64,000 nucleotides of DNA from a virus (IMGVR_UViG_3300035670_000191:1540-65539); one strand, 5' to 3'. Positions 2,646 through 41,036 are shown, counted from the first letter of the stretch. Translations and numbers: made by a program. The notes: generated by a model not told the origin, from the letters alone.

Positions 2646-2650
2646 TAACA

Positions 2651-10785: not shown

Positions 10786-10798
10786 CGTATCCAAACCT

Positions 10799-13791: not shown

Positions 13792-13960
13792 ACCCCTTGC
13801 GACACTTGGCCTTGCAATAGTAGTTGTTGCTGCCCTGACCATTGTCATAGTAGTAGGGATGCGAAATGCAACAGAACGGGCTTTCGCCGCACAGGGATTG
13901 CAACAATGTGTTGTAGAAAGGGTTGTTGTGTGGCAGAAAGAATGTTTTAAGTATGAATGA
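13733..13960 (+). CDS. small membrane protein (start uncertain)
   Basis: hydrophobic LGLAIVVVAALTIVIVVG fills the gap between genes. Confidence 0.45.
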   Translation: MSPMKTQPTSNDSPQVFRCEPLATLGLAIVVVAALTIVIVVGMRNATERAFAAQGLQQCVVERVVVWQKECFKYE

Positions 13961-14582
13961 GAGGGCAAGCCTTCGGATTCTAGTTGCTTGTGAAGAATCC
14001 CAAGTTGTTACAGTAGCTTTGCGTGCCCGTGGCCATGAAGCGTATTCCTGTGATATACTTCCTCCGTCGGGGGGGCATCCAGAATGGCACATTCAGCAAG
14101 ATGTTACGGAACTTCTACGTTCCCCACGTGAATGGGATATGTGTATTGCTTTCCCACCGTGTACACATCTTGCTGTAAGTGGCTCACGGCACTTTGCTGC
14201 CAAACAAGCAGATGGTAGGCAAGCAGCCGGTATAGACTTTTTCATGCAATTTGTGCATTCCCCTGTGCCTCTTAAGGCCATAGAAAACCCAGTGGGAATC
14301 ATGTCTACTTTGTACAGAAGACCTGACCAGATAATCCAGCCGTGGATGTTTGGGTATCCTACAACCAAGGCTACTTGTTTATGGTTGTTCAACCTCCCTA
14401 AACTTGTTCCGACAAACATAGTTTCTAAGGGTGAAAATGTCACACTTGGAAGCGGAAAAAAGATGGCGAGATGGCACTATGATCTGAGTTGTCTTAAACA
14501 GTCCGAAAGAGCCAAAGCTAGAAGCAAAACTTTTCAAGGTATTGCAGACGCTATGGCAACACAATGGTCACCCCTTTTATAG
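13953..14582 (+). CDS. phage DNA cytosine-C5 methyltransferase-like protein
   Basis: ILVACEES, SCDI, AFPPCTHL, IENPVG, KATCLWL, RSKTF.GIA.AMA.QW. Confidence 0.85.
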   Translation: MNERASLRILVACEESQVVTVALRARGHEAYSCDILPPSGGHPEWHIQQDVTELLRSPREWDMCIAFPPCTHLAVSGSRHFAAKQADGRQAAGIDFFMQFVHSPVPLKAIENPVGIMSTLYRRPDQIIQPWMFGYPTTKATCLWLFNLPKLVPTNIVSKGENVTLGSGKKMARWHYDLSCLKQSERAKARSKTFQGIADAMATQWSPLL

Positions 14583-14920
14583 CCACAACTATGCGCGAAC
14601 CAGAAGAATCTTACGAACCAACATGCCTTGCAGACCCCGTTGAACTTTATGAAGTATTTAAGCGAACAACAGAAGACTGGCACCCTTCTTATGTTGCTGG
14701 CAACCGCCACCTTGTAAAAGTCCAGCTTTACAAGCCTGTCACTGAACCTGGGGATGTTCCTCGGTGGATTATAAATGTTTGGGGTGCAGATGACTTTGGA
14801 ATGACTGCGGTATTCTACCGGTATACACGGGATGAAGCCTATAGTAAGTTCCTCTACATTCTGATGCAAGACAATATAACCCGCCGCTTTCTTGAATCAC
14901 TTGGCTTTACTGTTGCTTAA
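14564..14920 (+). CDS. hypothetical protein
   Basis: 118 aa ORF in operon; VWGADDFG motif. Confidence 0.65.
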   Translation: MVTPFIATTMREPEESYEPTCLADPVELYEVFKRTTEDWHPSYVAGNRHLVKVQLYKPVTEPGDVPRWIINVWGADDFGMTAVFYRYTRDEAYSKFLYILMQDNITRRFLESLGFTVA

Positions 14921-14974
14921 CCCGGGAAGGGAGGGACAAGTCCTCCCAACCCACTTACACTCTGAGAAACCACA

Positions 14975-15331
14975 ATGACTGCTCCAAACATGAACTTAAC
15001 AACTTATCAAAACCTTGCAATGCGTACCGCGAAGGAACTTCCCTTCACTGAAGCGATGTGCCATGCTGCTCTTGGACTTTCTTCTGAAGCTGGTGAATAT
15101 GCTACGGCTGTGAAGGCAACCATAGTTTACGGGCGTCCTTTGGATGAGGCAAATATCTTTGAAGAACTTGGAGATGTGCTTTGGTTTGTTGCGTATGCTG
15201 CTGCAACGCATGGGTACAATCTGGAAGATGTTGCACTGAACAACATCCGGAAACTACAAAAGCGATTCCCGGAACGGTATTCTGACACTTGTGCTAATGC
15301 ACGTGCAGACAAAACTGAGGGTCAAGTATGA
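14975..15331 (+). CDS. MazG-like NTP pyrophosphohydrolase
   Basis: LGLSSEAGE, EELGDVLWF, NIRKL.KR.P. Confidence 0.9.
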   Translation: MTAPNMNLTTYQNLAMRTAKELPFTEAMCHAALGLSSEAGEYATAVKATIVYGRPLDEANIFEELGDVLWFVAYAAATHGYNLEDVALNNIRKLQKRFPERYSDTCANARADKTEGQV

Positions 15332-15810
15332 ACAACATGAGCCAGGCTTCGTCCACGGGCCAAACTTCGTCCACGGGCCACATTCCCTTTAACTTCCAAC
15401 GAGAACTTGACAGTCTCGGGGCTATGTCAGCCGAAGCCCTCAAAGACCGCGTTACTACACTCGAACGCGACAGACTTATAATGGACAGCCAGCTAACCGG
15501 GTATGAAGAAGGCGTAGACTCTAAGTCAGCCGTTTGGTACAAGCAGGCAAAATATGTTTACCGGGCTAAGGGCTTGTTGATTGAAGCCGCTAACCGGGAG
15601 ATTAAGAAACGGAATGAAAGCTCCCAAGTTGGGAAGTTCGTAGCACTTCTCGCCGAGATGCGCGTGTTTCATAAAGTTGCCGAACGTCAGAACGGGGAGA
15701 CTGGTGTCTTTGTGTGTTTTGGTGAAGGGAAAGATGTTGTGCTTACGTTTGTCAATGGACGTTATACAAATGCCCTGTTCCCGATGCCCATTCCGCGTGA
15801 AACTCTGTAG
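15328..15810 (+). CDS. hypothetical protein
   Basis: 160 aa; 18-bp tandem duplication near the start. Confidence 0.65.
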   Translation: MNNMSQASSTGQTSSTGHIPFNFQRELDSLGAMSAEALKDRVTTLERDRLIMDSQLTGYEEGVDSKSAVWYKQAKYVYRAKGLLIEAANREIKKRNESSQVGKFVALLAEMRVFHKVAERQNGETGVFVCFGEGKDVVLTFVNGRYTNALFPMPIPRETL

Positions 15811-15818
15811 GTGTTTAT

Positions 15819-16721
15819 ATGAATCCGCAAAAAGCCCGGCACCTGTATGTTGAAGAGCAGAAGAAGAAGCCCAACATCAACCATACTTACTTTGTGACTG
15901 AGAAACTGGACGGATGGTATACTTATCTGGATGTTGTCGGCACAGATGTTGGGAGTTTCAGAAGCCGAACTCACAGAGTTATTCCGGCCCTGCTTCCTCA
16001 TCACGCCGAAGCCCGTAGCCTACTACGAAATGCCCTGCCCTTGTTTCAAGACTTCGGAGTTTATAGTTGTAGGGTTTTGTGTGAGACTGTTGTCCCAGAT
16101 ATGGACTTCCATACAGCCAATGGCCTGTTGAACAGGACGGCGAACTTTGCTGAGATAAGCCCAGTGTTCCATATACATGATGTTGTTCCAAGGACAGCAG
16201 AAGGGGCTTGCCCTGGATGGAGTGCCGAAAAGCGATCCCGTTTTGTAGGGATTCTTGGGAGAATTATCCAGACTATGCACTATGATTCTTTTCGCACTGT
16301 TCCGATCCTTGCTGTATCTTCTAAGAAGGATGAGTGGCTTGCAGAGTTCCGTAAAGTAGTTGATGCCGGTGGTGAAGGAGTTGTGTTGAAGCGGGTTGAT
16401 GCGGATTACGCCCCCGGTGTCAGGAACTCTTCGCTCATGAAGATTAAACTTGAAGAGTCTTTTGACCTGTTGTGTGAAGAAGTCGTAGACACCGTGGGGG
16501 AAAAGGGGAATCCTAATAAGAATCTTCGGCTTGTTGATGCAGCCGGAACAAAAGTAGAAGTTAGGCTTGGGGCAGACAAAGACCTTGAGACTATAACAGA
16601 AACTTCACCCGTTGGCCATGTCATAGAGATAAAGTGTATGACAAAGTTGGTCAGTGGTGGATACCGTGAGCCTCGGTTTAAGGCTTTTCGTTGGGATAAA
16701 AGCCCGACAGATATTGACTAG
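15819..16721 (+). CDS. minimal ATP-dependent DNA ligase
   Basis: EKLDG (motif I), FHIHD, EGVVLK, MKIK, REPRF. Confidence 0.9.
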   Translation: MNPQKARHLYVEEQKKKPNINHTYFVTEKLDGWYTYLDVVGTDVGSFRSRTHRVIPALLPHHAEARSLLRNALPLFQDFGVYSCRVLCETVVPDMDFHTANGLLNRTANFAEISPVFHIHDVVPRTAEGACPGWSAEKRSRFVGILGRIIQTMHYDSFRTVPILAVSSKKDEWLAEFRKVVDAGGEGVVLKRVDADYAPGVRNSSLMKIKLEESFDLLCEEVVDTVGEKGNPNKNLRLVDAAGTKVEVRLGADKDLETITETSPVGHVIEIKCMTKLVSGGYREPRFKAFRWDKSPTDID

Positions 16722-16740
16722 AAACTACGGAGTACAGAGT

Positions 16741-17037
16741 ATGAACAAAGTGCAAACAGAAGCCGTTATTCGCGGAATGTTAGAAGAAAGGGGAAGTCGG
16801 TATGGGGACTTTTCAGATGTTGCTGGATGTAGTCAGGGCTTGAAGGCTGTTATGATACAAACCCCTCATTGGTTTGACTTATCAGATGTTCAGAGAGAGG
16901 CTCTTGAGGCCGTTGCTGCCAAAATAAGTAGGATTCTGAGTGGGGATTTTGAGTATAGGGATTCTTGGCAAGATATGGTCGGGTATGTTACACTCGTGCT
17001 TGACAGACTTCCTGACCGTGACAACGGTAATTCTTAA
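16741..17037 (+). CDS. DUF6378-like / nucleotide-modification-associated domain protein
   Basis: LEERGSRYGDF, KISRILSGD..Y.DSW.D..GY. Confidence 0.7.
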   Translation: MNKVQTEAVIRGMLEERGSRYGDFSDVAGCSQGLKAVMIQTPHWFDLSDVQREALEAVAAKISRILSGDFEYRDSWQDMVGYVTLVLDRLPDRDNGNS

Positions 17038-17085
17038 GGCCCGGCCTAGGCGGCATTTGCCAATCTGACTTTGCGGAGTTATCCC

Positions 17086-17475
17086 ATGAAAGCTATAGTT
17101 TTCCTCGTGCTTCTTACAACTACTCAGTATGTTGGGTCAAAACCCCTGTCTCCGGTTGAACAAGATTGTTTAGCCAGGTCACTCTATCATGAAGGTAGAA
17201 GTTTGGGGGCTAGGGATTGGCGAAGGATGTCGAATGTTGTGTTGAACAGAGCAGTGGCGAGACGGAAAAACCGTCGGAAGGTGTTTGGTGCAAGAAGTGG
17301 AAACGTGTGTGATGTTGTTAAGTCAAGTGAGTTTACTACTCGGAGTCGTCTTCTTAGCCGAATCCGTGAGCCGAAGATTTATGAGAAGATACGGCAGTTT
17401 GCTAAGTCTGTTAAGGGGCCGACAGGGCATGAGTTGTTCTTTTCGTCAACGAGAGGGAGGATGCACTACAAGTAA
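17086..17475 (+). CDS. SleB-like cell wall hydrolase (Hydrolase_2), signal peptide
   Basis: CLARSLYHEGR, VVLNR, VCDVV; hydrophobic N-terminus. Confidence 0.75.
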   Translation: MKAIVFLVLLTTTQYVGSKPLSPVEQDCLARSLYHEGRSLGARDWRRMSNVVLNRAVARRKNRRKVFGARSGNVCDVVKSSEFTTRSRLLSRIREPKIYEKIRQFAKSVKGPTGHELFFSSTRGRMHYK

Positions 17476-17538
17476 GCCAGGGCTTGAAGCTCATGAGAGG
17501 CACTTGAGCAAAAAAGTGTGATTTTTTCAAGGAAACTG

Positions 17539-17568
17539 TTGTGCATGGACGCACAAACATGGTAAACT
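17539..17568 (+). promoter_or_regulatory. sigma70-like promoter
   Basis: TTGTGC-18-TAAACT with extended -10 TG. Confidence 0.45.
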
Positions 17569-17633
17569 ACCCCTATCTTTTGGAGATGTTCTCCGAAGAC
17601 CCTAATCCTAGTTTTTGACCCAAGAGGTGAGTT

Positions 17634-18458
17634 ATGAGTGATATTGAACCCGTTGAAGTGGCCGAAGCCACTGGCCGCCCTGTTGTGATGCAAGATGGTA
17701 GTACTGTTGTGTTTGGCGACCGCGCTAACCGTAAGTCTGTTATGGACTTGGACTCGAACAGTATTACGTTCTATATTGCAACGGGTGAGATTATCCGGCA
17801 AGAGTTTGTTGGACTTCAGGCGTTCGATGGACTGGAGAATCTGAGCGTGTTTTTCCGCAGAATTATCCTGGATGGGATTCGTGCGAAGGTTAATAGTCAG
17901 GTTGGGGCTACTCCGCTTGTGAGCGAGGAGTTCATGGAAATTGAAGTAGATGGTCAAAAGGTGAAGAAGCCCACCGGTGGTTTTGTTCACAGTCTGGCAA
18001 AGTCTATTCAGGATTCGTTGGCTGAGATTGCAAGCGGTGTTTATACGAATCGGGCCATGTTGGCTTCTTCGTCACGGCGTAGTTATAGGTCGCTGACTAC
18101 TGAGCAAGAGGCTTATGCTCTGACTGCAATCCACGTGGCTTCTATTTTTGCTGCAAAGCAAGGGACTGTGGAATGGACTGTGGATGGCCTGCATATTCCG
18201 AACGTAACTGCTGATGTTCGTGCCGCATGGGCCGCTTTGCCGAAGGAACAACAAGCTGTTGTCAAAAAGAGCGTTCCGTTCAAGAAGTTTAAGGCTGACC
18301 TGGTGTTTGCGCGTAAGGGTTTTACTGTTGAGTCTCAGGCTGTTGCAACCCCTGTGGGCCTTGTAGCAGTTCCGGACGCCGGACAGTGGGATGTTACTGC
18401 TATGGAACCGGAACCGGAAGCTGACACCGAGGCTGATGCCCTGCCGTTGGCCGCGTAA
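17634..18458 (+). CDS. hypothetical protein, probably highly expressed
   Basis: 274 aa, GAGGTG RBS, own promoter, downstream hairpin. Confidence 0.8.
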   Translation: MSDIEPVEVAEATGRPVVMQDGSTVVFGDRANRKSVMDLDSNSITFYIATGEIIRQEFVGLQAFDGLENLSVFFRRIILDGIRAKVNSQVGATPLVSEEFMEIEVDGQKVKKPTGGFVHSLAKSIQDSLAEIASGVYTNRAMLASSSRRSYRSLTTEQEAYALTAIHVASIFAAKQGTVEWTVDGLHIPNVTADVRAAWAALPKEQQAVVKKSVPFKKFKADLVFARKGFTVESQAVATPVGLVAVPDAGQWDVTAMEPEPEADTEADALPLAA

Positions 18459-18597
18459 GGTTAAGGGCACGGATGCCCTAGCCCCTAGCAAGGTACCTCT
18501 ACAAAGTTGACTTGTAGTCGGGATTTTGGAAACTGGCTTTTTCCCCGGAGCAACTTTTTTCAAATTGACTTGTAGGGTGGGTTATTATAAGGGGCGA

Positions 18598-18690
18598 AGA
18601 GGACACCGGCAAAAGGGGAAATACTAAGCCCCAGTGCCGGTGTCTTGTAGGTGTGGTGAAAAGGCGGGGCTTTAGGGTCTCGCCTTTTTT
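18598..18690 (+). ncRNA. candidate small RNA (stem-loop plus terminator)
   Basis: AGGACACCGGCA/TGCCGGTGTCTT stem with inner GGGG/CCCC; terminator 18659-18690; TTGACT at 18565. Confidence 0.4.
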
Positions 18691-18723
18691 GTGTTTAGCC
18701 TTTGCTTTGGTGTTGGAGTTTGT

Positions 18724-19527
18724 ATGCGTTATCGGTTGTATCAAGGGGATTGCGCCAAAGTTATGGCTTCATTCCCGCCGGGGTCTGTTGACCTTGTTGT
18801 TACAAGTCCACCGTATGATGGGCTTAGGGCATACGAAGGGTATACGTTTGACTTCCCAAAGATTGCTGAAGAACTTTGGAGAGTTGTTACTGAAGGTGGT
18901 ATTGTTGTTTGGGTTATTGGAGATGCTACTGTTAATGGAAGTGAGACAGGAACGTCTTTTAGACAAGTGTTAAAGTTTATGGATGTTGGATTCCGGCTGC
19001 ATGATACTATGATATGGAATAAGGGGAGTTTTACGGCTGTTGGTGCTTTGAAAACACGCTATGGGCCTGTATTCGAGTATATGTTTGTACTGGCAAAGGG
19101 TAAGCCTAGAGTGTTTAATCCGATAAAGGATAGGAGGAATAAGCAAGCGGGAAAAACATCCAACGGACGGCTTCGACTCCCCGACGGTTCCATGAGGCTA
19201 AGAAGTAACCCAGACTATGTTATACCGGAATATGGGCAAAGATTTAACGTCTGGGATATACATCCGGTGAAGACCAACCGAGCCGACGACCATCCTGCCC
19301 CTTTTCCAGAAGCACTTGCAAATGACCATATTGTTTCTTGGTCGAATCCGGGAGACATAATACTTGACCCGTTCGCCGGAAGCGGAACAACATTGTTAGC
19401 GGCTTTGACAAACGGGCGGCAAGCCATTGGAATTGAAACTTCGGAAAAGTATTGTGGTATGATACGTGAGAGGCTGGCAAGACGTGGATTTCTTCCGGGC
19501 GGAAGTATTGTTGCTGTTGAAGGCTAA
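18724..19527 (+). CDS. beta-class DNA methyltransferase (probably N4-cytosine)
   Basis: VTSPPY, HPAPFP, LDPFAGSGTT. Confidence 0.92.
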   Translation: MRYRLYQGDCAKVMASFPPGSVDLVVTSPPYDGLRAYEGYTFDFPKIAEELWRVVTEGGIVVWVIGDATVNGSETGTSFRQVLKFMDVGFRLHDTMIWNKGSFTAVGALKTRYGPVFEYMFVLAKGKPRVFNPIKDRRNKQAGKTSNGRLRLPDGSMRLRSNPDYVIPEYGQRFNVWDIHPVKTNRADDHPAPFPEALANDHIVSWSNPGDIILDPFAGSGTTLLAALTNGRQAIGIETSEKYCGMIRERLARRGFLPGGSIVAVEG

Positions 19528-19573
19528 GGCAAGCCGCAAATTTATGAAAAGTGTTCTTCTGTGAGGTGATGTT

Positions 19574-19654
19574 ATGGTGTTGTTAGATGTTTTTTGGATA
19601 TGTGTTACTGCTTTGGTCACGTTCTCACTGCTCTCGGCGGTTGTAGATGATTAG
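19574..19654 (+). CDS. 26-aa hydrophobic peptide
   Basis: GAGGTG RBS; MVLLDVFWICVTALVTFSLLSAVVDD; below the ORF-track cutoff. Confidence 0.5.
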   Translation: MVLLDVFWICVTALVTFSLLSAVVDD

Positions 19655-20408
19655 GGAGTCAAGCCACGGTAGACTTATACTTGGTAACTGTCTTGACGTG
19701 CTACCCACACTCCGTGATACGTCCGCCGGGATGGTTTTGTGTGATATGCCGTATGGGACGACAGCTTGTAAGTGGGATGTTGTTATTCCTCTTGCGCCAA
19801 TGTGGCGGGAAGTTATGAGGGTTGTGAAGCCAGGCGGTGCAATCGTGCTGACAGCCACACAACCTTTTTCAAGTGTACTTGTTATGAGTCAGCCGGACTT
19901 GTTTAAGTATGCTTGGTATTGGTGTAAGAATTTTAAGACCGGACATTTGAATGCTAAGAAGCAGCCAATGAGGAGCGTGGAAGATATACTTGTGTTTTGC
20001 GATGGGCAGACAGTGTATAATCCGCAAGGGGTTGTGCCGCATGGTAAGGTGAAAGACCGGGGAGTCGGGGCCACGACAAACCGGCCTTGTGGTAGTGTGT
20101 CTTTGCAAACCCACACCGGCTATCCACACCAGCAGTTGTTCTTTGACCGTGACTTACCCTCTGTTCATCCTACGCAAAAGCCTGTTGCACTCTTTGAGTA
20201 TCTTGTAAGGACTTACACCAATCCCGGTGATACAGTAGTTGACTTTTGTTCTGGGAGCGGAACTACTGCTTTGGCGTGCATTGCTTCTGGGCGGAACTAT
20301 GTTTGTGTTGAGAAAGACCCAGGGTTTTATGAAGTAGGGGTTACGCGGGTGGGTGAGGCTGAAGCCATGCAAGCCCTGTGCCAACCGAGCGAATCTCACG
20401 CGCCGTGA
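19647..20408 (+). CDS. beta-class DNA methyltransferase (N6A/N4C)
   Basis: CDMPYG, HPTQKP, VDFCSGSGTT. Confidence 0.92.
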   Translation: MIRESSHGRLILGNCLDVLPTLRDTSAGMVLCDMPYGTTACKWDVVIPLAPMWREVMRVVKPGGAIVLTATQPFSSVLVMSQPDLFKYAWYWCKNFKTGHLNAKKQPMRSVEDILVFCDGQTVYNPQGVVPHGKVKDRGVGATTNRPCGSVSLQTHTGYPHQQLFFDRDLPSVHPTQKPVALFEYLVRTYTNPGDTVVDFCSGSGTTALACIASGRNYVCVEKDPGFYEVGVTRVGEAEAMQALCQPSESHAP

Positions 20409-20412
20409 AAAT

Positions 20413-20607
20413 TTGACAAGTGTGGTTGGGTGTGGTAGGAACGGGTTGACCGCTCTGCTTACCACACTTTTGGCTGTTTGTCAAGAGCCTGTGCCGCCAT
20501 GCACACTTCCGTCGGAATGTCAAGCCGGAAGCTGGCTGTTGACAAAGGGCTTTTGGTGTGGTAGGGCAGGCCAAGCACTTGACACACACCCCAACATGTG
20601 GTAAACC
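20413..20607. promoter_or_regulatory. cluster of sigma70-like sites in both orientations
   Basis: TTGACA-N12-TGTGG-TA at 20413(+), 20484(-), 20539(+), 20579(+); weaker copy at 20523(-). Confidence 0.75.
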
Positions 20608-20632
20608 CCCCCCCCCCACCTGGCCCCCCCCC

Positions 20633-20732
20633 ACAAAATCCATGCCACCCCTCCCTCCCTCCCCCCGGCACGGCCCTTGCACCGTCAAAATCCATGCCAC
20701 CACGCCCGACCCGACCTGGCACGAACCTTGCA
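20633..20732. promoter_or_regulatory. cluster of four sigma54-like sites
   Basis: CGGCACGGCCCTTGCA 20666, TGGCACGAACCTTGCA 20717; TGGCATGGATTTTG twice on the minus strand. Confidence 0.7.
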
Positions 20733-20827
20733 AGTTACCCCGCCACCGATCCGCCACCATAGTAAAGTTCTCGATCAACCTCGTTCTAACTCCCAAAAAA
20801 GTCCAAAAAAGCACCAACTACCCCGGG

Positions 20828-20866
20828 GGCCGCCCACAGCCCCTATCACAAAGCGTGATAACCAGC
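20828..20866 (+). repeat. 39-bp direct repeat, copy 1
   Basis: 31/39 identical to 23467-23505; contains TATCAC-N5-GTGATA. Confidence 0.7.
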
Positions 20867-21049
20867 CCTGAAATTCCCCAGAAAATTCCGGGATAAAAAC
20901 CCTGTAAACCGCATGGTTTTTCCGTGTGGGCAACAAGCGACGCCCAGTGTTGCGCCCACGCAACAATTACAACGGACTGTGATAGGGGGTTGTTGCGCGG
21001 ACGCAACAGCCAAGCCTTCGGCTCCGGTCTCCGACTTTGCATGGCCTGC

Positions 21050-22330
21050 TGCCCAAAGGTTTGCCCAAGTCCGGGTCTGCCTCGCCAAAGGTTTGCCAAA
21101 GTTTTGGTGGAAGGTTTGTCCGAGTCTGCGGCTCCCGGCTCCGGGTGTCAAGTTTCCGACAGGCCCGACAAGCAGGGCCATGGGACTGGTCAGTCCAGAT
21201 CGCCCCACCCAAACATAAACTTGGACTAACTTCCAGGGCTTGGGAGACAAGAACTTAAGGCAAGCCCTGCAAGCCCTGCAAGCCCCAAGTTGAACTTAGT
21301 TGTTGCGGGCCAAGGGCCATGCCCATTCAACAAGTTGAAGTTGGGCCTGTGGCCAAGGGCCATACCCAGTGTCAATTTTCCGACACTTGGACAAGTGGGG
21401 TTTGCCCGGCTGCCCGGCTGCCCGTGTTGCGTGTTTGCAACAAGTGGGCCGGGGCCGAGGGCTTTCCAAGTGGAACTTATTGTTGCCACAGATGTACCTG
21501 CCCACAAGTGGACTTCCAGTTTCACTTGTGGGGCTTGCCAAGTTGGCAACAAATTGACCCCAAGTTGAACTTCCATGAACTTCCATGAACTTCCAGTTGT
21601 TTGCCACAAGTGAAAAGTTAGCCAAGCCTGTTTGCAACAAGGGTGGGGGGGACTTCAATAAGTTGAACCCGGTTGAACCCGGTTGAACCCGGTTGAACGG
21701 CCAAGCCTGTTGGCTTCAATAAGTTTGGTTCCCGCCGGGCAAGCCCTGCCTGCAACAAGTTGAGTCAATGTTGGCTGTGCCATGCAACAAGTTTGGCTCC
21801 CGCCAGTGGAACAATGTTCATGCAACAAGTTAACCCGGTTAACCCTGTTAAACAATGTTTGCCAGTGGAATCCACTGGATTCAACAAGTTGAACACTGTT
21901 CATGGCTTCTTTCAGAAGTTGGGGGGGGGGGGCAATGGGCAGACTTTCAGAAGTGAAACTTATGGGCCAAGGGCAAGGGCAAGCCTGGCCAATCCCGACC
22001 AAGCCTGCAACAAGTTGACCTTGTTGACCCCGGTTGACCCCGGTTGACCCGCCCCGTTCAGCCCTTGTTCAGGTTCATGCGACAGGTTGACAGGGTGACC
22101 TTGTGGCCATGCCCCGGTTGAACCCCGGTTGCCGACAAGCCCACAAGTGTCAGTTTCCCGACAGATGGGCGGGGCAAGCCCGCTGGCTGAACAGACTGAC
22201 TGTTGACAGGCCAAGCCAGGGGCAAGCCCAAAGGGATGGCAGGTGTCAAGTGGGCACAGGGCCAAGCACCGAGGCCAAGCCCTCACGCCCTCACGCTCAC
22301 ACAAGTCGCAGCCCACAGCCCACAGCCCGG
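21050..22330. repeat. non-coding field of short tandem repeats and palindromes
   Basis: CAAGCCCTG, AACTTCCATG, GTTGAACCCG, GTTGACCCCG tandems; TTCAACAAGTTGAA palindromes. Confidence 0.8.
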
Positions 22331-22452
22331 ATTGGCCGAAGGCCTGGCCACGGCCACTTTTTTGCGTGCGGGTGCATGTGTGGATTTATAGTTACCCTAG
22401 TTGTTCTAGTTCGGAGGCCGCCGACCCGCATTCTGCCTAGGGCCGAAGGCCA

Positions 22453-22518
22453 ATAGGTGGGATAAAACAACCAGATAGGGGGGAAAATCCAACCACATAG
22501 GTGGGAAAAAACAACCAC
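22453..22518 (+). repeat. three tandem 22-bp iterons (putative plasmid-type origin)
   Basis: ATAGGTGGGATAAAACAACCAG / ATAGGGGGGAAAATCCAACCAC / ATAGGTGGGAAAAAACAACCAC directly upstream of rep. Confidence 0.85.
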
Positions 22519-22585
22519 AAAAGGGTGAATGGCCCTTGCCCTGCTCACCCCTATCGGCTAGACTGGGGCTTTTTGAGGCAGAGCC

Positions 22586-23422
22586 GTGATCGTGAAAAAC
22601 GTCCCAAGCACCGACAGCAGAATGGTGTGCCCCTTGTTGGCGGGCAACACCCATGCAAGTTTGAGCAACATTTTGTTGAACGGAAGTTTCCCTTTTTCAA
22701 ACACTGAGGCTCTTGCCATTCTTTTGTCACTTGGAGGGGTTAATTCAACTCCGACTGACAACCCTGAAACAGATGCTTACAGGAAGTCAAGAGTTTATGC
22801 GTTCAGCACAAAAGACTATGCGGCTTTGAAAAACTTGGACGCAAGACAGACTTACAGGACTTTTCTGGCAGCAGCAGAGTCCATTTTCAAGAAACACTTT
22901 GTTGTTTTTCCGTCAAAGACAAATAGAGACAAAGTCTTGTGCCGTTGGGTTAGCGAAGTTCATGCTTATGCAGATGCAGACAGGATTGGGTTTGTTTACA
23001 GTCCGACGGTTTACGACTTTATCTTTAACTTGACAGGGGATTTTACGCGGCTAAACACACTTGTGTCTTTGACCATTGAGGGAAAACACCCAAGAAGATT
23101 GTTTATGCTGCTGGAACAACAGCGGTTCAGGGGTCTTGTGGGGCAGGCAGGGTGGGGAATTGAGGAACTTTATGAGTGCTTTGGGGCAACGGAGGCGGCC
23201 AGGGAAGCGAAGGTGTTTTTCAAGGACATTTTCAATCCGTCAGTTGCGGCTTTGAAGGAAGTTGGGTATCTGGATGAGTGCGAAGTTCGGAAGGTTAAGG
23301 CTGGTCGGAACATTTCGGGAGTTGAGTTGGACTTTGTTTTGGCGTCGCAGGAGAAGTTTGCCGAAGTTTACAGGGCAGACTTGGAGCATCTTGCGAAACT
23401 GAAGGCAAGGTGGGGAAGCTAA
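22586..23422 (+). CDS. plasmid-type replication initiator (Rep_3/RepB family)
   Basis: SN.LL....FS..E, FIFNL..DFT, RRLFMLL, IEEL..FG, FFKDIF.PSV, K.GR.I; adjacent iterons. Confidence 0.85.
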   Translation: MIVKNVPSTDSRMVCPLLAGNTHASLSNILLNGSFPFSNTEALAILLSLGGVNSTPTDNPETDAYRKSRVYAFSTKDYAALKNLDARQTYRTFLAAAESIFKKHFVVFPSKTNRDKVLCRWVSEVHAYADADRIGFVYSPTVYDFIFNLTGDFTRLNTLVSLTIEGKHPRRLFMLLEQQRFRGLVGQAGWGIEELYECFGATEAAREAKVFFKDIFNPSVAALKEVGYLDECEVRKVKAGRNISGVELDFVLASQEKFAEVYRADLEHLAKLKARWGS

Positions 23423-23466
23423 CAGCCCCACTCCCGCCTCAAAAAAGCGTCAAAAAACCGACACTA

Positions 23467-23505
23467 GGCCACCCACAGCCAAAATCACATTCCGTGATAC
23501 CCAGC
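23467..23505 (+). repeat. 39-bp direct repeat, copy 2
   Basis: matches 20828-20866; contains AATCAC-N5-GTGATA. Confidence 0.7.
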
Positions 23506-24058
23506 AAAGGGCCGGCAAAGGGACTGTTCAACCTTAGACAAAGCCAGAGGGCGGACAAACTTGTCCAAAGTTCTTGGCGAACAGACAGAGCTATACTCAG
23601 GTTGTGACAGAGCATCATGGCTAAAGTTCCATGAAATCACCGATAGACGACAGTCTACCACAGATTGCCGCCGGGGGGACACGTTTAGGCAACAAACTGG
23701 GAGGGGAGTGTCAAAAAAGTGACACCCAGTGAGGGCGGGGCCGGGCCGGGGCCAAGGACGGACGGGGCAAACCCGTGAAGTGGGAAGCGTGACAGACGGA
23801 CGGGGCAAGCCGGGGGGACAAGCCCCAAAGTCCAACTTAGTCAAAGATTGTGGCGTGGCGAGGCCCAACTTAGTCCAAGTTCGTGCCGAAAGAATGGTAG
23901 ACTTAGTTTGGGGCGAGCCGGGGCAGGCCAGGGTGTACAGGTTTTGTATGGGGGGGGGCTAGCCCTGGGCGGTTGTGTGGATTTTGGCCAAGTGTCAAGA
24001 TTTTGACGGTGGGGGGGGGGGGTGTCGGTGTCCGGGTGTGGGCGGTGGGGTTAGGGTG

Positions 24059-24087
24059 TTGACGGGGAGGAGGGGGTGTGGTAGAGT
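24059..24087 (+). promoter_or_regulatory. sigma70 promoter of the Lcl gene cluster
   Basis: TTGACG-N12-TGTGG-TAGAGT (17-bp spacer, -7 T present). Confidence 0.7.
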
Positions 24088-24153
24088 GTGTGGGAAGGGG
24101 GGGGTGGCCCTCGCCCCAAACAGCAATTCCAAGCACCACCTGGCGAGAGTATC

Positions 24154-24489
24154 ATGACAGACAAATTATACAGCGAGTTTTCTGAAGTCCTAGAAGAAGT
24201 TTTCCTGGAGAGGGAGAAAGTCCCCTTTGAAAAGTCTTCCGTCAATCCTTCTCATGTATGTGTAGCTGAAAGATTTTACAAGGAGGGGTTGAAAGCAGCC
24301 GCCATACAGCTAGGGTATAGCCGGTCTGACTTCTATTTTGCGTGGAAGGTAGCACAAGTAGCAATGTACGAACATAGACAAATGTACAGTTTGCTACTAG
24401 ACAGTGACCGGGCAGACACTATAGCCTACTTTTATGACATTCCGTCATGGAACATGGTTAAAGCAATGATGGATATTTTTACAGAGTAA
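24154..24489 (+). CDS. hypothetical protein
   Basis: ATG 24154 with GAGAG RBS, downstream of the promoter. Confidence 0.65.
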   Translation: MTDKLYSEFSEVLEEVFLEREKVPFEKSSVNPSHVCVAERFYKEGLKAAAIQLGYSRSDFYFAWKVAQVAMYEHRQMYSLLLDSDRADTIAYFYDIPSWNMVKAMMDIFTE

Positions 24490-24500: not shown

Positions 24501-24884
24501 GTGAGAGCGGTGCAAAGCATGAGATACGAAACAGTGACAGAAACGGAAGTATTAGACCGAAAGACAGGTTTAATATGGATGAAAGACCCTAAGATTGACC
24601 TAAATTTTGAACAAGCTAAACAATATGCAGAGAGAATTTCTACTATAAATGGAAAATTTTGGAGAATCCCTACAATAGAGGAATTAGTTAGCTTAGTGGA
24701 CTATACATTATGCACACCTAACACACCGGCATCAACATTCCCTAATATGTTACAAAATATCTATTGGTCGTTTTCAAACTATTGGGGTGAGGTTGATAGA
24801 GTCTGGGTCGTAAATTTCTACGATGGTAAGATAATGGATTATGGCCTTGGTGATAATGTTGCATTAGTTCTCCTAGTTCGGTAA
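24501..24884 (+). CDS. Lcl C-terminal / DUF1566 domain protein
   Basis: D.KTGLIW, WRIPTIEEL, YWS, WVVNF.DG, LVR. Confidence 0.88.
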   Translation: MRAVQSMRYETVTETEVLDRKTGLIWMKDPKIDLNFEQAKQYAERISTINGKFWRIPTIEELVSLVDYTLCTPNTPASTFPNMLQNIYWSFSNYWGEVDRVWVVNFYDGKIMDYGLGDNVALVLLVR

Positions 24885-24890: not shown

Positions 24891-25292
24891 ATGAATGTCG
24901 AGGTGCAGAGCATGAGATACGTTGAAGTTTCAGAAATACACGACACGCAAACAGGGCTAATTTGGCAAAAAGTATGTCAAGGCTCATTCACTATAGAAGA
25001 AGCCATAGCCTATGTTAAGTCTTTTAACAAAAGCACAGGCATGGAATGGAGAATTCCCACAATCGAGGAACTGAATAGGTTGGTTGACAGAAGCCAATTT
25101 GACCCGGCAACTAAATTCCCAGACAGCCCTAGTGGACTTTTCTGGTCATCTACAAAGTATCTTGGGAGGCCAGAAAGGGTATTCACCAATGAAAACAGCC
25201 ATAGTTATTGGTATATTAACTTCACTAATGGGGAGGTAAGTTTCAACTTAGGGGATTCTGAGTATTACCTAAGGTTAGTCCGTGATAAGTAA
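24891..25292 (+). CDS. Lcl C-terminal / DUF1566 domain protein
   Basis: DTQTGLIWQ, WRIPTIEEL, FWSST, INF.NG, LRLVR. Confidence 0.88.
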   Translation: MNVEVQSMRYVEVSEIHDTQTGLIWQKVCQGSFTIEEAIAYVKSFNKSTGMEWRIPTIEELNRLVDRSQFDPATKFPDSPSGLFWSSTKYLGRPERVFTNENSHSYWYINFTNGEVSFNLGDSEYYLRLVRDK

Positions 25293-25322
25293 TGCGGTTA
25301 AACAGAAACATAAGGCAGAAGC

Positions 25323-25721
25323 ATGAGTAAGTTAAAACAAATTGGTAGGGTAAAAGGTAAGGATTCCGCTAGCGATTCCATTGTATACTTGGAAAAACAC
25401 GCTAAGAGCAATGGGAAACTGTATTACGGTTTAGTTGTTGCAGAGACACCTGACGGAGTGATTAAGCCATATTTAATGGACGACATTATCGCGTCATTTG
25501 ACCTAGATGCACCGCTTATTGGAATGGAGGTTACTGTAGATAACCCACTTGAGTTTATTCAAAGTTGGCGAGACGTTTATAACTTAGAAAGCGTTATAAA
25601 GATGTACCGGAGAAACAACCCAAGCTCCTCTACGTTGCCGTTGTTACAAGCCGACCTGCTAGAGGCTTTAGATAAAATATGGTCTGAATTGACTAATTTG
25701 AAATACCGGAGAAGAATATGA
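25323..25721 (+). CDS. hypothetical protein
   Basis: 132 aa ORF overlapping the next start. Confidence 0.65.
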   Translation: MSKLKQIGRVKGKDSASDSIVYLEKHAKSNGKLYYGLVVAETPDGVIKPYLMDDIIASFDLDAPLIGMEVTVDNPLEFIQSWRDVYNLESVIKMYRRNNPSSSTLPLLQADLLEALDKIWSELTNLKYRRRI

Positions 25722-26086
25722 GATACGTTGAAAAAGCAGAATCAGAAATCCTTGATACCAAAACCAATTTGGTTTGGCAAAGGTCATACGAGACCATGAC
25801 ATTTGATGAGGCTCACGCTTATGCAAAGCGTGTTTCAGATGTTACAGGGCAACAATGGAGGGTGCCGACACTGGATGAATTGACGAGTCTGATTGACAGA
25901 TCAACAAGAAACCCCGCGTCGGCATTTCCTGGTATGCCTCCGGTATGGTTTTGGTCGTCGTCGCCGTACGTCGGCTATACCAGTTGCGTCTGGGGTGTCA
26001 ATTTCGGCGATGGCAGTGTCTACGGCAGCGGCAGCCGTGGCTACGGCTACGGCGCGGTTCGGTTGGTTCGTGATGCAATACCCTAA
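25718..26086 (+). CDS. Lcl/DUF1566 protein with a DGR-type variable region
   Basis: WRVPTLDEL, FWSSS, VRLVR; 3' codons almost all NNY. Confidence 0.88.
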   Translation: MRYVEKAESEILDTKTNLVWQRSYETMTFDEAHAYAKRVSDVTGQQWRVPTLDELTSLIDRSTRNPASAFPGMPPVWFWSSSPYVGYTSCVWGVNFGDGSVYGSGSRGYGYGAVRLVRDAIP

Positions 26087-26169
26087 AGCCCCACATACCC
26101 CGCAATAAGTATTCAAGCCCTGGGTGAGATACCCACGGGAATACCCACGGGAATACCTTTCTGACAAAG

Positions 26170-26215
26170 TTAAGGCCAGCCAATAATACCATGTAAGTAT
26201 TACTGCTGGCCTTAA
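26170..26215. terminator. inverted repeat between convergent operons
   Basis: TTAAGGCCAGC..GCTGGCCTTAA with inner TAATAC/GTATTA. Confidence 0.6.
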
Positions 26216-26222
26216 TCAATCC

Positions 26223-26633
26223 TCACAGGCCAAATTTAGCCTTCTCCGCCCTTCCCCAAGCCCGGATACCCTCCACATAGGCATTGTAGATATTAAACTC
26301 ATCCGAAGGCGCAGTCCGAATAAGTTTAATCTCATCATACAAAGCGTATCGTTCTGCAATCTTTTCCCTAACTCGTGCATTCACCAGAGCAACATGCGGG
26401 CTACTAGCCGAAAGTGCTTCCTTAAGTTCCGGAGTCAGCGTCACAGTTTCAATAGTAATCTGGCTTGGTTGTTCGGGCAATACAAGATTATCAGGTATAC
26501 TTACATACATATATTCGTCAAGTTTTCCAAGAAATGTGGGGAAAGGCCCGTCCATTTCAGTCGAAGGCGTGTATAGTAAGTTGTAGGTAGTATACTCATC
26601 CGATACCGGTATGTATTTAACTATAGAAGGCAT
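26223..26633 (-). CDS. hypothetical protein, possibly a fibre-associated chaperone
   Basis: 136 aa, GAGG RBS, directly after the Mtd-like gene. Confidence 0.75.
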   Translation of the reverse strand: MPSIVKYIPVSDEYTTYNLLYTPSTEMDGPFPTFLGKLDEYMYVSIPDNLVLPEQPSQITIETVTLTPELKEALSASSPHVALVNARVREKIAERYALYDEIKLIRTAPSDEFNIYNAYVEGIRAWGRAEKAKFGL

Positions 26634-26691
26634 TGGTTGTCCTCATTGTGTTAGATTGTGGTAGTTTTGGGCTATCGCTCCAACACTATTT

Positions 26692-28062
26692 TTACAGGTA
26701 AAGGCCGGAGCGGCCGCCCACAGTGTCGTTCGAGTACGACCCTACGTGGCCGAGATAAAACGCCCAAGCCCCGGCACCCGGCCCATGGCCCCAGTAGCCG
26801 CCGGAGATCGGGCACAGGCCGATCGGTTTGTAATCCCCTATCCCGTCTAATCCGAAATGATTAGACCCGGCCCCAGATGCCCCGTCGACCTGCGGTATGC
26901 CCATTCCGGTCAATCGCCAGTTTGGGGTGGTGCGGTCGCTGCTGGCAGCAAATACGCCGTTGGCGGCATTTCCAAACCGCAGGGACTGGTTTGTTCCGGT
27001 CAATGCTCCAGTATCCGTTCCGTATGTGTGGCTGTAAAATACGTCGCTGTTGTACGTAAATGCCGTGTCGGCAGTAATATCCCGACAGGCAACCGCTTCC
27101 TTTAGTAAATACAGCAGTGTGCCGTCTGACGTAATCCCCGGGGTTACTTCCCACATATTTCCGTTTAAGTCAGCTACCCCACAATTCTGACCGTTATGCG
27201 TAGTTTTGGCAAACGGCGTTCCACTGCCAGTTTTGCCGCAGTTGGGGTATCCGTCAGATGTATATTGCACGTTAGTATCGTCAATATCCAGCAGGGCGTT
27301 ATTATTGTTCCCCTTGGGAAAGTTACTGAAACCGCTCGCGTTATACCACGCACACGTTGTGTTACTCGTCACCGCCTGTGCGTGTGCCTGTGCTAGCAAT
27401 GCCAGTGCCGCATATTGATGCCTGAATACAGGGAAAAACTGGGCGCCGTAATACCCGCCCCGAGTTTTACTCGCAGCAAATGCTCCGTCGTATCGGTTCT
27501 GCGCGGAGGTCATCCCGGTCAGGTTGCCCCAGGGGTTATGATCTGCGTGACTTGACAATGGATTTCCATTTTTAATTGAACTAGCCCGGCCTGCATTATT
27601 GGCCCACTGGTATTTATCGACAAAAAATCCGGGTTTTGACACTCCGCCGTCAATAAACCCCCGGTGCAAAGCATATCCTGCCGCATTTGCATCTGTTTCC
27701 GAAGCAAACGTAAAATCGCCAGCAATATCTATGGCATTAGCCCCATATACCGAGTATCTTGGACTACCAGAATTGCCAATTCTATAATAGAATCGGGGTA
27801 TCCAAGCCATGATACTCCCGTCTGTATACATATAATTTCCCCAGTTATCGTGTACTGGGTCATACGTCCCTACCATCGTCGCAAAGTCTGTCGGAACATC
27901 CAGTGGATATGGTGCAATACCAAACCCATAACTCCCGGCAATACCTATGTCACTTGCACCGTGCATATACTGGGGGTGTATCGTGTCCCCCCGTTGTAAC
28001 TCGCTTATTTGCCAAGTCCCGTCTGGTTTTTGAAAAAACTTTAATGGTACTATGTTAGTCAT
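26692..28062 (-). CDS. Mtd-like C-type-lectin (FGE-type) receptor-binding protein with a DGR-type variable region
   Basis: GFFVDKY, THNG..CGVADLNGNMWE, C-terminal ISGGYW..AGAWA..VGGRS. Confidence 0.85.
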   Translation of the reverse strand: MTNIVPLKFFQKPDGTWQISELQRGDTIHPQYMHGASDIGIAGSYGFGIAPYPLDVPTDFATMVGTYDPVHDNWGNYMYTDGSIMAWIPRFYYRIGNSGSPRYSVYGANAIDIAGDFTFASETDANAAGYALHRGFIDGGVSKPGFFVDKYQWANNAGRASSIKNGNPLSSHADHNPWGNLTGMTSAQNRYDGAFAASKTRGGYYGAQFFPVFRHQYAALALLAQAHAQAVTSNTTCAWYNASGFSNFPKGNNNNALLDIDDTNVQYTSDGYPNCGKTGSGTPFAKTTHNGQNCGVADLNGNMWEVTPGITSDGTLLYLLKEAVACRDITADTAFTYNSDVFYSHTYGTDTGALTGTNQSLRFGNAANGVFAASSDRTTPNWRLTGMGIPQVDGASGAGSNHFGLDGIGDYKPIGLCPISGGYWGHGPGAGAWAFYLGHVGSYSNDTVGGRSGLYL

Positions 28063-30338: not shown

Positions 30339-31586
30339 TTAGATGTTAGCCATGCTGGTAACAGACAGGCGAACATTAGCAGCACTCGACAGATAAACAT
30401 CCATCGAGTTAGCATCAGTTGCCTTCACGGAAACAATGTCATTCCGCCAAGAACCATCAGCACGCTGTACCCACACGGTAAAGTCTACAAACTGGCTGTT
30501 CAGATTGTGGGTAACGGTGTGTTGAGTAGCAGCAGAAGCCGAAGCGAACGTGAAACGGCGAGCATTGTAGTCACTCCGAATAGCCGTATCAGCAGCAGTA
30601 CGAGCAGCAACTTCTGCATCAATGTTTGACTGCAAAGTAGTATCAGCAGTCGAACGAGCAGAAGACTCACTAGTAAGGTCAGACTTCAGAGAGTTGATAG
30701 ACCCGACGATAGTCCCTTTTTCAGAAGTAGTAAGAGTGGTCAGGTCACCAATCTTACCATTTACCTGACTTTCAACCGTGGTAACGCGAGTATCAAGAGC
30801 AGTGTCGGCAGCAGCACGAGTTACAAGTTCGGTTGCCAGACCGCTTTCCAGAGTTGATACACGGGCTTTGAAAGCAGTGTCAACGTCTACAACAAAGCCA
30901 GTATCGGTAGAACCGGTTACGCTAATGTAATCCGTGGTACCGGCAACAGCACTATCCGTGTTGTCAATCTTATCAACGCCAGCAGCGGAGTTGAAAACAA
31001 GGCCATCATTCAGGTTGGCATAAAACGGAGTACCGGCTGCACCTACCTTAAAGTAACCAGCAGTTGCTACTTTGTAGTAATCGCCGGTGGCTTTTTGGGC
31101 CAGCGTTTCCATGTCAAGGGCATTGGCGGCATCTGCGCCACCATTGACAGTACCAACATATTCAAAGACGTTACCAAGGGCATCAATCCGTTGTCCCAAA
31201 GCAACTTCGGCAGCCGTTGCACGGGAAACTTCCGTTGCCAGATTAGAAGTCAGGGTAGCTTCGGCAGCGGTGGCACGAGTAACTTCAGCGGCAAGATTGG
31301 TGGTCAGCGTCGCTTCAGCAGCAGTTGCGCGAGCAATCTCGGCATTCAGAGCAGCAGTAACAGTTGCAATGTCAGCAGCCAGGGCTTCAGCAGTTGCAAA
31401 AGTACGAACAACTACTGCACCGGTTGCGTCCAGAGTAGAGTGCTTCCAAACTTTGTCGGTGGTGTTATACCAAGCGCGGCCAGCAGCAACCGGAACCGGA
31501 TCAGAAGCCAACTGCTCTACATGGAAGTTTTCAATGTAAGCATTGGCAGCAAGAGTAATACCGTGATAAATAGGAAAGTCAGCCAT
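30339..31586 (-). CDS. coiled-coil fibre-like virion protein
   Basis: repeated AE..RATAAE..L; C-terminal HTVTHNLNS module; GAGG RBS. Confidence 0.8.
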   Translation of the reverse strand: MADFPIYHGITLAANAYIENFHVEQLASDPVPVAAGRAWYNTTDKVWKHSTLDATGAVVVRTFATAEALAADIATVTAALNAEIARATAAEATLTTNLAAEVTRATAAEATLTSNLATEVSRATAAEVALGQRIDALGNVFEYVGTVNGGADAANALDMETLAQKATGDYYKVATAGYFKVGAAGTPFYANLNDGLVFNSAAGVDKIDNTDSAVAGTTDYISVTGSTDTGFVVDVDTAFKARVSTLESGLATELVTRAAADTALDTRVTTVESQVNGKIGDLTTLTTSEKGTIVGSINSLKSDLTSESSARSTADTTLQSNIDAEVAARTAADTAIRSDYNARRFTFASASAATQHTVTHNLNSQFVDFTVWVQRADGSWRNDIVSVKATDANSMDVYLSSAANVRLSVTSMANI

Positions 31587-40974: not shown

Positions 40975-41005
40975 GGTAGTGGTCAGGCAGAAGGCTCATG
41001 CTCAG

Positions 41006-41035: not shown

Positions 41036-41036
41036 G

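Follow-up and report, generated by a model that had tools for sequence, protein, structure and literature searches.

An adenine-mutagenised variable region in an Lcl_C gene of a tailed phage and its template family in Methylococcales genomes

The stretch of phage DNA analysed here (the window) comprises 64,000 of the 65,539 bases of one virus record of IMG/VR (IMGVR_UViG_3300035670_000191:1540-65539; record G000), and the feature under study is the 3' end of a gene on its plus strand, at 25718..26086, which encodes a stand-alone Lcl_C/DUF1566 domain of 122 amino acids (aa) with a C-type-lectin fold (list of open reading frames, ORFs; Pfam PF07603, E=1.5e-25). The segment 25949-26070 of this gene is almost certainly a true variable region (VR) of a diversity-generating retroelement (DGR), produced by adenine mutagenesis from a family of template repeats (TR) that was found in Methylococcales. 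The matching TR, Avd and reverse transcriptase (RT) are present in bacterial genomes, and all three are absent from the 65.5 kb of the phage record. That a chromosomal DGR of the host type rewrote the phage copy in trans is a proposal whose chances of being right or wrong are about evenly balanced.

The variable region and its template repeat

The VR can be recognised in its codons. From the TAC at 25967, 28 of 29 consecutive codons end in C or T, the exception being TGG, as a recount of this run, noticed in the first-pass annotation of the window, confirms. Such a run occurs once among the 16,907 stretches of 29 codons contained in 59 ORFs (18,559 codons), and the best stretch in any other gene reaches 26/29. 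Given the genome-wide share of pyrimidine-ending codons (0.518), its probability is P ~1.5e-7 per stretch, and chance is excluded since it is also the sole maximum. The second-highest stretch, in the gene 30339..31586, was rejected as a VR and belongs to an Ala/Thr-rich fibre protein. Over the 41 codons from F78 to R118 (25949-26071), the counts of A are 6 at the first, 7 at the second and 0 at the third codon position, against 24, 23 and 24 in the 77 N-terminal codons. The gene has two Lcl_C paralogues without the VR scaffold, namely paralogue 1 (24501..24884, plus strand; Pfam E=1.6e-21), in which codon usage is ordinary and 9 of the last 45 codons end in A, and paralogue 2 (24891..25292, plus strand; Pfam E=4.3e-24), in which 8 of the last 45 do. 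The contrast that the annotation had drawn with the rest of the gene and with the paralogues is borne out by these counts (0/41 against 24/77, 9/45 and 8/45), and the A-free scaffold codons that it had quoted, TCG TCG TCG CCG and GCG GTT CGG TTG GTT, are present.

A 19-base scaffold probe was scanned against IMG/VR, metagenomes and GTDB genomes. Among the 66 stretches listed by the metagenome scan, 8 loci (10 copies) are true VRs, 2 loci belong to a distant relative and the remainder are chance matches; the 10 VR copies often occur two per contig, on contigs that bear bacterial genes, and follow unrelated upstream sequence. The genome scan listed 41 stretches, with 3 true matches (2 VRs and 1 TR) and 2 distant ones, and the 3 true matches lie on three contigs of one uncultured Methylococcaceae metagenome-assembled genome (G006). 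An IMG/VR match of the 19-mer (L011) was rejected as a chance match inside a terminase gene, and a 24-mer from the 3' scaffold of the window gave 0 matches in IMG/VR.

One of the G006 contigs (L086) carries a repeat reading FWSSSPYVGNTNNAWNVNFNNGNVNNNNRNNNNAVRLVRGG, which by its sequence is a textbook TR. Over the 114 alignable positions, the VR of the window differs from this TR at 22 of 34 adenine sites and at 1 of 80 other sites (Fisher p=6e-14); the differences fall at template adenines, and the TR lies on another replicon. The VR had been called from the window alone at 25952..26071, within 3 bases of the TR-matching segment, and this call is substantiated by a TR that is accompanied in Methylococcales by Avd and a DGR-type RT. 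A template-like homologue, whose complete absence, together with a lack of variation among reads, the annotation had counted against any activity, exists in G006. The sole departure from the template outside adenines is a C>T at 25989, where the window reads GTC (Val; 25988..25990, plus strand) and the TR and all other copies read GCC, GCA, GCG or GCT (Ala).

The homology to the TR extends over 25949..26070 on the plus strand (TTT TGG TCG TCG TCG CCG ... GCG GTT CGG TTG GTT CG), as delimited by the TR comparison and by a jump in identity. Within it, the codon alignment places a mutable core at 25976..26053 (plus strand), with codons opposite AAY or ACC codons of the template, and the tail alignment places a constant stretch common to the TR at 26054..26070 (plus strand), which is a candidate first half of the initiation of mutagenic homing site (IMH). 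The identity of the window to every other copy is 3-20/30 in the 30 nucleotides (nt) upstream of 25949 and 25-27/27 from 25949 onwards, and to the TR's own upstream sequence it is 10/30; because of this jump, the conserved block starts exactly at the template start, and a sharp 5' boundary at the end of the TR is what a replacement limited by the complementary DNA (cDNA) predicts.

The scaffold is a fingerprint of the TR, as can be seen from a second genome of the family, G009, whose TR has synonymous variants of the scaffold (TCC, TAT GCC, GCA, CGC, GTG and TTA). Six G009 VRs carry six of the seven forms of the G009 TR, and at GCA two of them read GCG. At the seven sites that discriminate G006 from G009, the window agrees with G006 at 6 and with G009 at none, and the remaining site shows neither form. 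The two AAC runs that flank CGT (26036-26038) have 5+5 codons in the window and 4+4 in the TR of G006. Length variants also occur among the chromosomal VRs, as 5+4 and 7+4 (L027_2, L029, L031) and as 5+4 in one G009 VR (L130), and indels opposite AAC have been described in passages of Wu et al. 2018 (PMC5758913).

On the G006 contig L086, the end of a VR is followed by an ORF of 140 aa that is weakly bAvd-like (E=7.7e-4, below the cut-off), then by the TR and lastly by an ORF without a Pfam family. The last 75 nt of this contig are the first 75 nt of another contig (C79), where the RT follows (L122; RVT_1, E=2e-16) with the motifs GIPVGNLTSQ and YVDD; the motif [I/L/V]GxxxSQ is a mark of DGR RTs. 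The TR core was present in 4 of the 401 genomes sampled from the order of G006, namely G006 (L086 and L122), G009 (L125), G374 (L152) and G139 (L153), and these cassettes have the nucleotide scaffold seen in the window and one TR core in common, with TR runs of 4+4 codons. In L152 and L153, a single contig bears the target, the Avd-like ORF, the TR, a further ORF, which we take to code for a small transposase, and the beginning of the RT, and the RT of L122 is 63% identical to the RT fragment of L152. There are at least 5 VR copies in G006 and at least 6 in G009. Two exact-match TR probes, which would miss variants, gave 0 matches in 2.9 million IMG/VR contigs.

Some of the bacterial targets (L031, 5070-7397; L098, 3909-4652) are chains of Lcl_C modules, in which a VR ends each module and is not followed by a stop (...VRLVRGGQ...), so that the 3' recognition stretch must sit within coding sequence. 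The host protein of L079, the nearest bacterial relative of the phage gene, lacks a signal peptide and carries at its N-terminus an additional domain without a Pfam family. In L073, whose gene order is that of L079, a few kb at most separate the target from genes for a WYL regulator (PADLOC, E=8.1e-26) and for an IetA-like AAA ATPase (E=5.8e-27), the coordinates being 1630-2589 and 8848-10341, and this hints at a defence-type neighbourhood for these targets.

The annotation had also reported no RT, Avd or template in the window, with which the searches of the whole record agree. The record is linear and without end repeats, its completeness is estimated by CheckV at ~78%, and it spans 27 kb on one side of the VR and 38 kb on the other. 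RVT_1 gave 0 matches at E<=10 across the 65,539 bases, and no RVT_1 family was found by Pfam among the 60 ORFs; nor did any of these ORFs match bAvd or 23S_rRNA_IVP at E<=0.01 in a search that, run identically, detects the Avd of related phages. The best second ungapped match to the 117-nt core within the record is only 53/117, and BLAST of the VR against its own record returned a single location.

The target protein begins at the domain itself (MRY...), with no N-terminal domain and no signal peptide or lipobox seen, and its score for PF07603 is 90.2 bits against a curated cut-off of 34.9, the paralogues scoring 77.2 and 85.5 bits. An AlphaFold 2 model built on an alignment of 16 sequences has a mean predicted local distance difference test score of 84.6, and its best fold match is the C-terminal domain of Legionella Lcl (8q4e; Z 11.4, root-mean-square deviation 3.0, 108 aligned), followed by Bd2740 (Z 10.1), the DGR target TvpA (2y3c; Z 8.7) and Mtd (1yu0; Z 6.9). 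Foldseek with the same model returned nothing at E<=0.001 and matches at E>=0.02 only, and a sequence profile search of the PDB had 8q4e as its sole match (E=0.0017). In this predicted fold, the VR occupies the C-terminus of the C-type-lectin domain.

Phage homologues and the origin of the phage copy

Three relatives of the protein at 57-65% identity are found in the protein database, and the close homologues in IMG/VR occupy three loci (L001, L002 and L003). No RT was found in any of the five IMG/VR records reached through the protein alignment (0/5; three with close homologues and two with relatives at 33-34%; completeness 42, 81, 22, 98 and 100%), and the records that bear the homologous gene (G001-G003), which are 22-81% complete, show neither an RT nor a second copy. 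The four phage genes share one DNA scaffold, TTT TGG TCG TCG TCG CCG TAC GTC GGC ... TGG ... GTC ... TTC ... GGC ... GTC ... CGT ... GCG GTT CGG TTG GTT, along which the third positions are nearly identical and positions 1 and 2 of the intervening codons are free. When the window, L001, L002 and L003 are compared in pairs, the share of identical residues whose codon is also the same is 34-61% over the 77-78 N-terminal codons and 73-96% over the VR part; between the window and L003 the counts are 15/35 and 22/23, and between the window and L002 they are 13/38 and 18/20. The remainder of the phage genes is saturated at synonymous sites, and the scaffold has been kept codon for codon, a pattern of concerted evolution among these phages.

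The gene is resident in the phage lineage, for the L001 phage is syntenic with the window over 24.1-36.9 kb, and its terminase is 65% identical. Protein identity between the two is 116/133 in paralogue 2, 71/125 in the ORF 25323..25721 and 49/77 in the N-terminal part of the VR gene. The 3' end (...RDAIP) is common to the window, L001 and P0004 and occurs in no bacterial copy. The VR of L001 differs from that of the window at A sites, and also has 4 changes outside A sites, 3 of them in the 3' scaffold. Over the 75-77 aa that can be compared outside the VR, the host target L079 is 73% identical to L003, 71% to L002, 66% to L001 and 55% to the window, so that the phage genes are in these parts as close to the L079 type as to each other. 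Relatives of the terminase number 11 in IMG/VR, of which 10 were searched with 0 matches to RVT_1 and 0 to Lcl_C; all of them are 13-50% complete and the Lcl_C search matched no control, so that this result is uninformative.

A DGR of another kind is carried by related phages close to the position of the Lcl_C gene. The tail-fibre gene 26692..28062, which encodes 456 aa, has at its end a second orphan stretch that resembles a VR, at 26695..26823 on the minus strand (blastn, 87/118 to the TR of L138). Homologues of this gene (48-74% aa identity) and of the ORF 26223..26633 (50%) are present in G009, and between them L138 (contig C93) has a bAvd-like ORF, a TR with the sequence CPISGGNWNNGTNAGVWALNLNNTRSNSNNNVGGRSDL and an RT, which bears the motifs GIPIGNLLSQ and YVDD and is 32% identical to the chromosomal-type RT. 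In IMG/VR, L154 and L156 likewise show a tail fibre, bAvd (E=2e-17), a TR, an RT (RVT_1, E=1.3e-14) and a homologue of the ORF 26223..26633, and L155 shows a TR, a gap of ~1.3 kb and a homologue of the same ORF. The C-terminus of the fibre in the window, CPISGGYWGHGPGAGAWAFYLGHVGSYSNDTVGGRSGLYL, is the VR counterpart of this phage-type DGR, and it differs from the TR of L138 at 17/27 A sites and at 17/87 other sites, which is a bias, but does not indicate a close template. The site that holds avd–TR–RT in related phages is empty in the window (26634..26691), and the cassette is absent, because only 58 nt separate the stop of the fibre gene from the start of the ORF 26223..26633. The phage thus lacks a DGR that is present in its relatives at a distance of 0.6 kb from the Lcl_C VR, and the TR of that cassette belongs to the tail fibre, which is another VR family than the Lcl_C VR.

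Population data came from four runs, as contigs and at consensus level, three of which (X1, X2 and X3) belong to one study and the fourth (X4) to another; for X3 and X4, the conclusions are drawn from the covered parts. X1, which is probably the source, and X2 have the phage contig without a difference over 25000-26700, and a 231-nt contig of X3 is identical over 25834-26064. In X4, a 30-kb contig of a related phage differs by 6/311 and 11/162 nt in the flanks and by 13 over the first 67 nt of the VR. Seven of the listed substitutions can be attributed to this contig (depth 11.6), and they lie at codon positions 1-2 facing TR adenines, except the one at 25989, which restores the C of the TR; its joints hint at a different gene order, and its orthology is uncertain. 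Judged by the joints, 25310-25948 is replaced by 239 other bases and 406 bases stand between 26014 and 26053, an arrangement that could be explained by a tandem pair of VR-bearing genes in the absence of the ORF 25323..25721. X2 also contains short contigs with host-type flanks, one of which runs into 30 bases identical to part of the L079 VR of G006, and a G006-like organism therefore seems to co-occur with the phage in this sample.

The last 41 codons of the 122-aa gene were almost certainly copied by an adenine-mutagenic RT from an AAY-rich template RNA. The template is of the type that belongs to the chromosomal Methylococcales lineage, in which the cassette has the order target–Avd–TR–mobile ORF–RT and each genome has several remote targets. 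As the likeliest course of events we propose that the rewriting was done in trans by the DGR of the host cell, presumably a Methylococcales bacterium, while the phage DNA was inside it, and that the cDNA replaced exactly the TR-homologous stretch. Rewriting of the phage copy itself is favoured because the gene has a phage-specific architecture with differing VRs, because of the codon contrast within the gene and because the boundaries are those of the TR. A cellular donor is favoured because the TR family was found in bacterial genomes only (4/401, as against 0 IMG/VR contigs with the two exact probes) and because of the co-occurrence in X2.

Several points weigh against this proposal. Past the last mutable codon, the agreement of the window with the TR extends over 17 nt, up to GTTCG, and the gene then ends in ...CGT GAT GCA ATA CCC TAA, whereas the host VRs equal the TR for ~29 nt in all, since they follow it for the next ~12 bases as well (CGC GGC GGT, then TAG or CAG, then TG; TAG TG in the TR); with only 17 of the ~29 shared nt, the window may lack a full IMH. 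There is no GC-rich inverted repeat adjacent to the 3' end of the VR, the nearest (26170-26215) being 100 nt off; the host VRs of the Methylococcales family likewise show no obvious inverted repeat downstream, and the feature may not be applicable to this family. The one change outside adenines, at 25989, suggests drift since the last rewriting, and the contig consensus of the VR is the same in X1, X2 and X3, which points to a VR that is static now. All four observations tell against present activity, which is unproven. No TR with the runs of 5+5 codons expected of the exact donor was found. The region is a mosaic of similarity between the window and L001 (same codon in 98/111 identical residues in paralogue 2 versus 40/67 in ORF132), so that recombination is active at the locus and the contrast between these two phages is by itself weak. 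The host link is thin, with G009 homologues of only two tail-module genes (48-74% aa). Across the 64 genomes of the family, identity to the terminase does not exceed 31%, and the window DNA of 1-20000 and 40001-60000 has no match in G006, G009, G374 or G139, so that no spacer match exists there either. The record, finally, is incomplete.

The alternative that the annotation had placed beside action in trans is a frozen capture, in which the VR was written in a bacterial target, or in an ancestral phage with access to a DGR, and has since its capture never been rewritten, being now a slowly drifting end of a gene. Both possibilities stand, as the codon and boundary evidence favours rewriting and the consensus and short 3' stretch favour a static VR now; the capture is a possible, if somewhat unlikely, account. 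It would explain why the phage genes group outside the VR with one type of host target (L079), and an unsampled donor would look alike, for host targets with an N-terminal identity of 30-45% share the scaffold. The shortened 3' stretch, the consensus identical in three samples and the single change outside adenines, of which L001 already has 4, also speak for it; the mosaic similarity to L001 shows that recombination takes place, and a cassette lost from, or never present beside, the tail-fibre VR makes orphaned VRs at home in this genome. It is opposed by the phage-specific architecture (the MRY start, the synteny with L001 and the ...RDAIP end that the window has in common with L001 and P0004) in genes whose VRs differ at A sites, by the beginning of high identity at the 5' end of the TR and its ending within the 3' constant part, and by synonymous sites that are far better kept in the scaffold than in the remainder of the gene. 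Recombination would, moreover, need flanking homology, which is absent here (17-20/30 upstream and none downstream).

Two further explanations would dispense with a host element. The phage might have a DGR of its own in the missing ~22% of its genome or more than 25 kb away, acting on a non-adjacent target, and a linear record without end repeats at the CheckV estimate given above leaves room for one; for phage DGRs, targets that lie within 50 kb without being adjacent are described by Wu et al. (PMC5758913), and related phages do carry a DGR, of another TR family. This is nonetheless very unlikely, given the lack of an RT or second copy in the 65.5 kb and in G001-G003 (although these are no more than 22-81% complete), the intact and empty slot for an avd–TR–RT whose TR serves the tail fibre, and the exact TR probes without a match in IMG/VR. 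It is hardly credible, on the other hand, that the segment has nothing to do with a DGR and is a loop with local codon bias, or a product of chance. It is indeed rich in Gly, Tyr and Ser, and low-complexity loops can have skewed codons, but this idea is refuted by the match to a bacterial TR with differences at adenines only; the run is also the sole maximum in 16,907 stretches, and the same nucleotide scaffold recurs in 10 VR copies at 8 metagenome loci behind unrelated upstream sequence.

Genomic context of the Lcl_C gene

The gene content by Pfam is that of a tailed phage (lambda-type portal, large terminase, head-decoration protein, tape measure and tail-tip proteins), with a replication block that includes a family-A polymerase, helicases, a ligase, ThyX, MazG and three DNA methylases. 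No integrase was seen among the ORFs of the record, and no tRNA genes were found in it. The Lcl_C gene lies 5' of the structural genes and on the same strand as the replication genes. PHROGs and PADLOC have no family for the three Lcl_C genes or for the ORFs 24088..24489 and 25323..25721. Between convergent genes downstream of the VR, the inverted-repeat search gave a hairpin at 26170..26215 (no strand assigned) with 11-bp arms and an inner 9-bp pair, whose placement, 100 nt past the end of the TR homology, is unlike that of the BPP-1 cruciform; it is probably a bidirectional terminator, and the terminator scan made no call at this position.

The non-coding, iteron-rich stretch 20400-24100, within which lies an ORF for a Rep3-type initiator (22586-23422, plus strand; Pfam Rep3_N, E=5.2e-13), is GC-rich (0.53-0.55) and packed with short direct repeats, such as CCGGTTGAAC, which occurs three times near 21668, and motifs of CAAGCC and CAACAAGTTGA; long runs of C (20606-20655) and of G (23940-24110) flank it. 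By its sequence, it looks like an iteron origin of the plasmid type inside a phage. The 1,728-aa tail protein encoded at 58452-63638 (plus strand) has internal repeats at a spacing of 888-912 nt (58638/59526, 59376/60288 and 60441/61341) with 70-75% identity, which can be read as repeated modules of ~300 aa. Three DNA methyltransferase genes lie on the plus strand at 13923-14582, 18691-19527 and 19647-20408, with one PHROG methyltransferase match (E=7.6e-66) and two N6_N4_Mtase matches (E=8.3e-41 and 6.2e-23). Bases 2-271 of the record, 5' of the window, form a short tandem repeat, one frame of which reads ARTRTRTHAHPHARAP three times, and this is probably the point where the assembly broke.

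Relation to known retroelements and significance

The closest parallels are cellular DGRs with remote targets, such as that of Thiohalocapsa PB-PSB1 (Doré et al. 2024, PMC10907252) and those of Treponema and 'Lineage 4' (Wu et al. 2018, PMC5758913), in which, in the portions of these papers used here, the VR lies far from the RT and TR and matches the TR outside adenines, as it does in the window. For Thiohalocapsa, trans targets that match the TR at all non-A sites are described and activity in trans is inferred (PMC10907252). These systems have one TR and several targets per genome, like G006 (at least 5) and G009 (at least 6), and they resemble the Methylococcales cassettes also in having ORFs of mobile elements inside the cassette; they differ from the present case in that here the orphan target lies on a phage replicon and not on the chromosome that bears the TR. 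The consulted parts of these papers (PMC10907252, PMC5758913) do not take up the case of a cellular DGR that serves a gene of a phage, and the titles and abstract openings surveyed in the literature yielded no description of a phage-borne VR served by a chromosomal DGR. Surveys that require an RT beside the VR cannot see remote targets, a point which can be taken from the relevant passages of Roux et al. 2021 (PMC8144416).

The position of the VR is that of the CLec2 or category 'd' VRs (DUF1566, DUF823 or Fib_succ_major; Legionella LdtA), which lie at the C-terminus of DUF1566/Lcl_C, and about half of the targets of this category are, as reported in sections of the same paper, short proteins with the DUF1566 domain alone (Wu et al. 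2018, PMC5758913). In contrast to the phage-borne protein of the window, LdtA is a surface lipoprotein, and its gene adjoins its DGR. Phage BPP-1 (mtd–avd–TR–brt) offers a likeness in the adenine-specific transfer from TR to VR into the C-terminal tip of a lectin fold in a phage protein, and its VR is rewritten in trans by avd–TR–brt supplied on a plasmid, according to the experiments extracted from Guo et al. 2011 (PMC3240598), a source which, in those parts, also sets out the requirements for the IMH, the hairpin and 5' homology. In BPP-1, however, all parts stand in cis, with an IMH of 34 bp and an adjacent GC-rich cruciform, whereas the window has neither RT, Avd or TR nor an adjacent inverted repeat, and its 3' stretch is shortened; the BPP-1-like cassette that related phages carry beside the tail-fibre gene is missing too. 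A GC-rich inverted repeat just downstream of the IMH was counted in 127 of the 372 DGRs of Wu et al. (PMC5758913).

A more speculative and improbable idea is that the phage keeps a copy of a lectin-fold binding domain of the host, apparently cytoplasmic and diversified by a DGR, as a decoy or mimic against DGR-based sensing, and that this copy is diversified by the host's own retroelement. If this were true, the phage would parasitise a cellular hypermutation machine with its decoy, and would provide a natural case of a DGR that acts across replicons.

DGRs have been treated as self-contained, with a phage DGR for phage genes and a cellular DGR for cellular genes. The gene described here carries the exact fingerprint of a chromosomal template, in a phage where no DGR was found. 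Should the phage copy be rewritten inside the cell, the hypermutation machinery of the host would also shape the proteins of its phages, and the VR scaffold could act as a marker for the assignment of hosts; should it be a frozen capture, it still shows that target domains of DGRs pass between methanotrophs and the phages that infect them.

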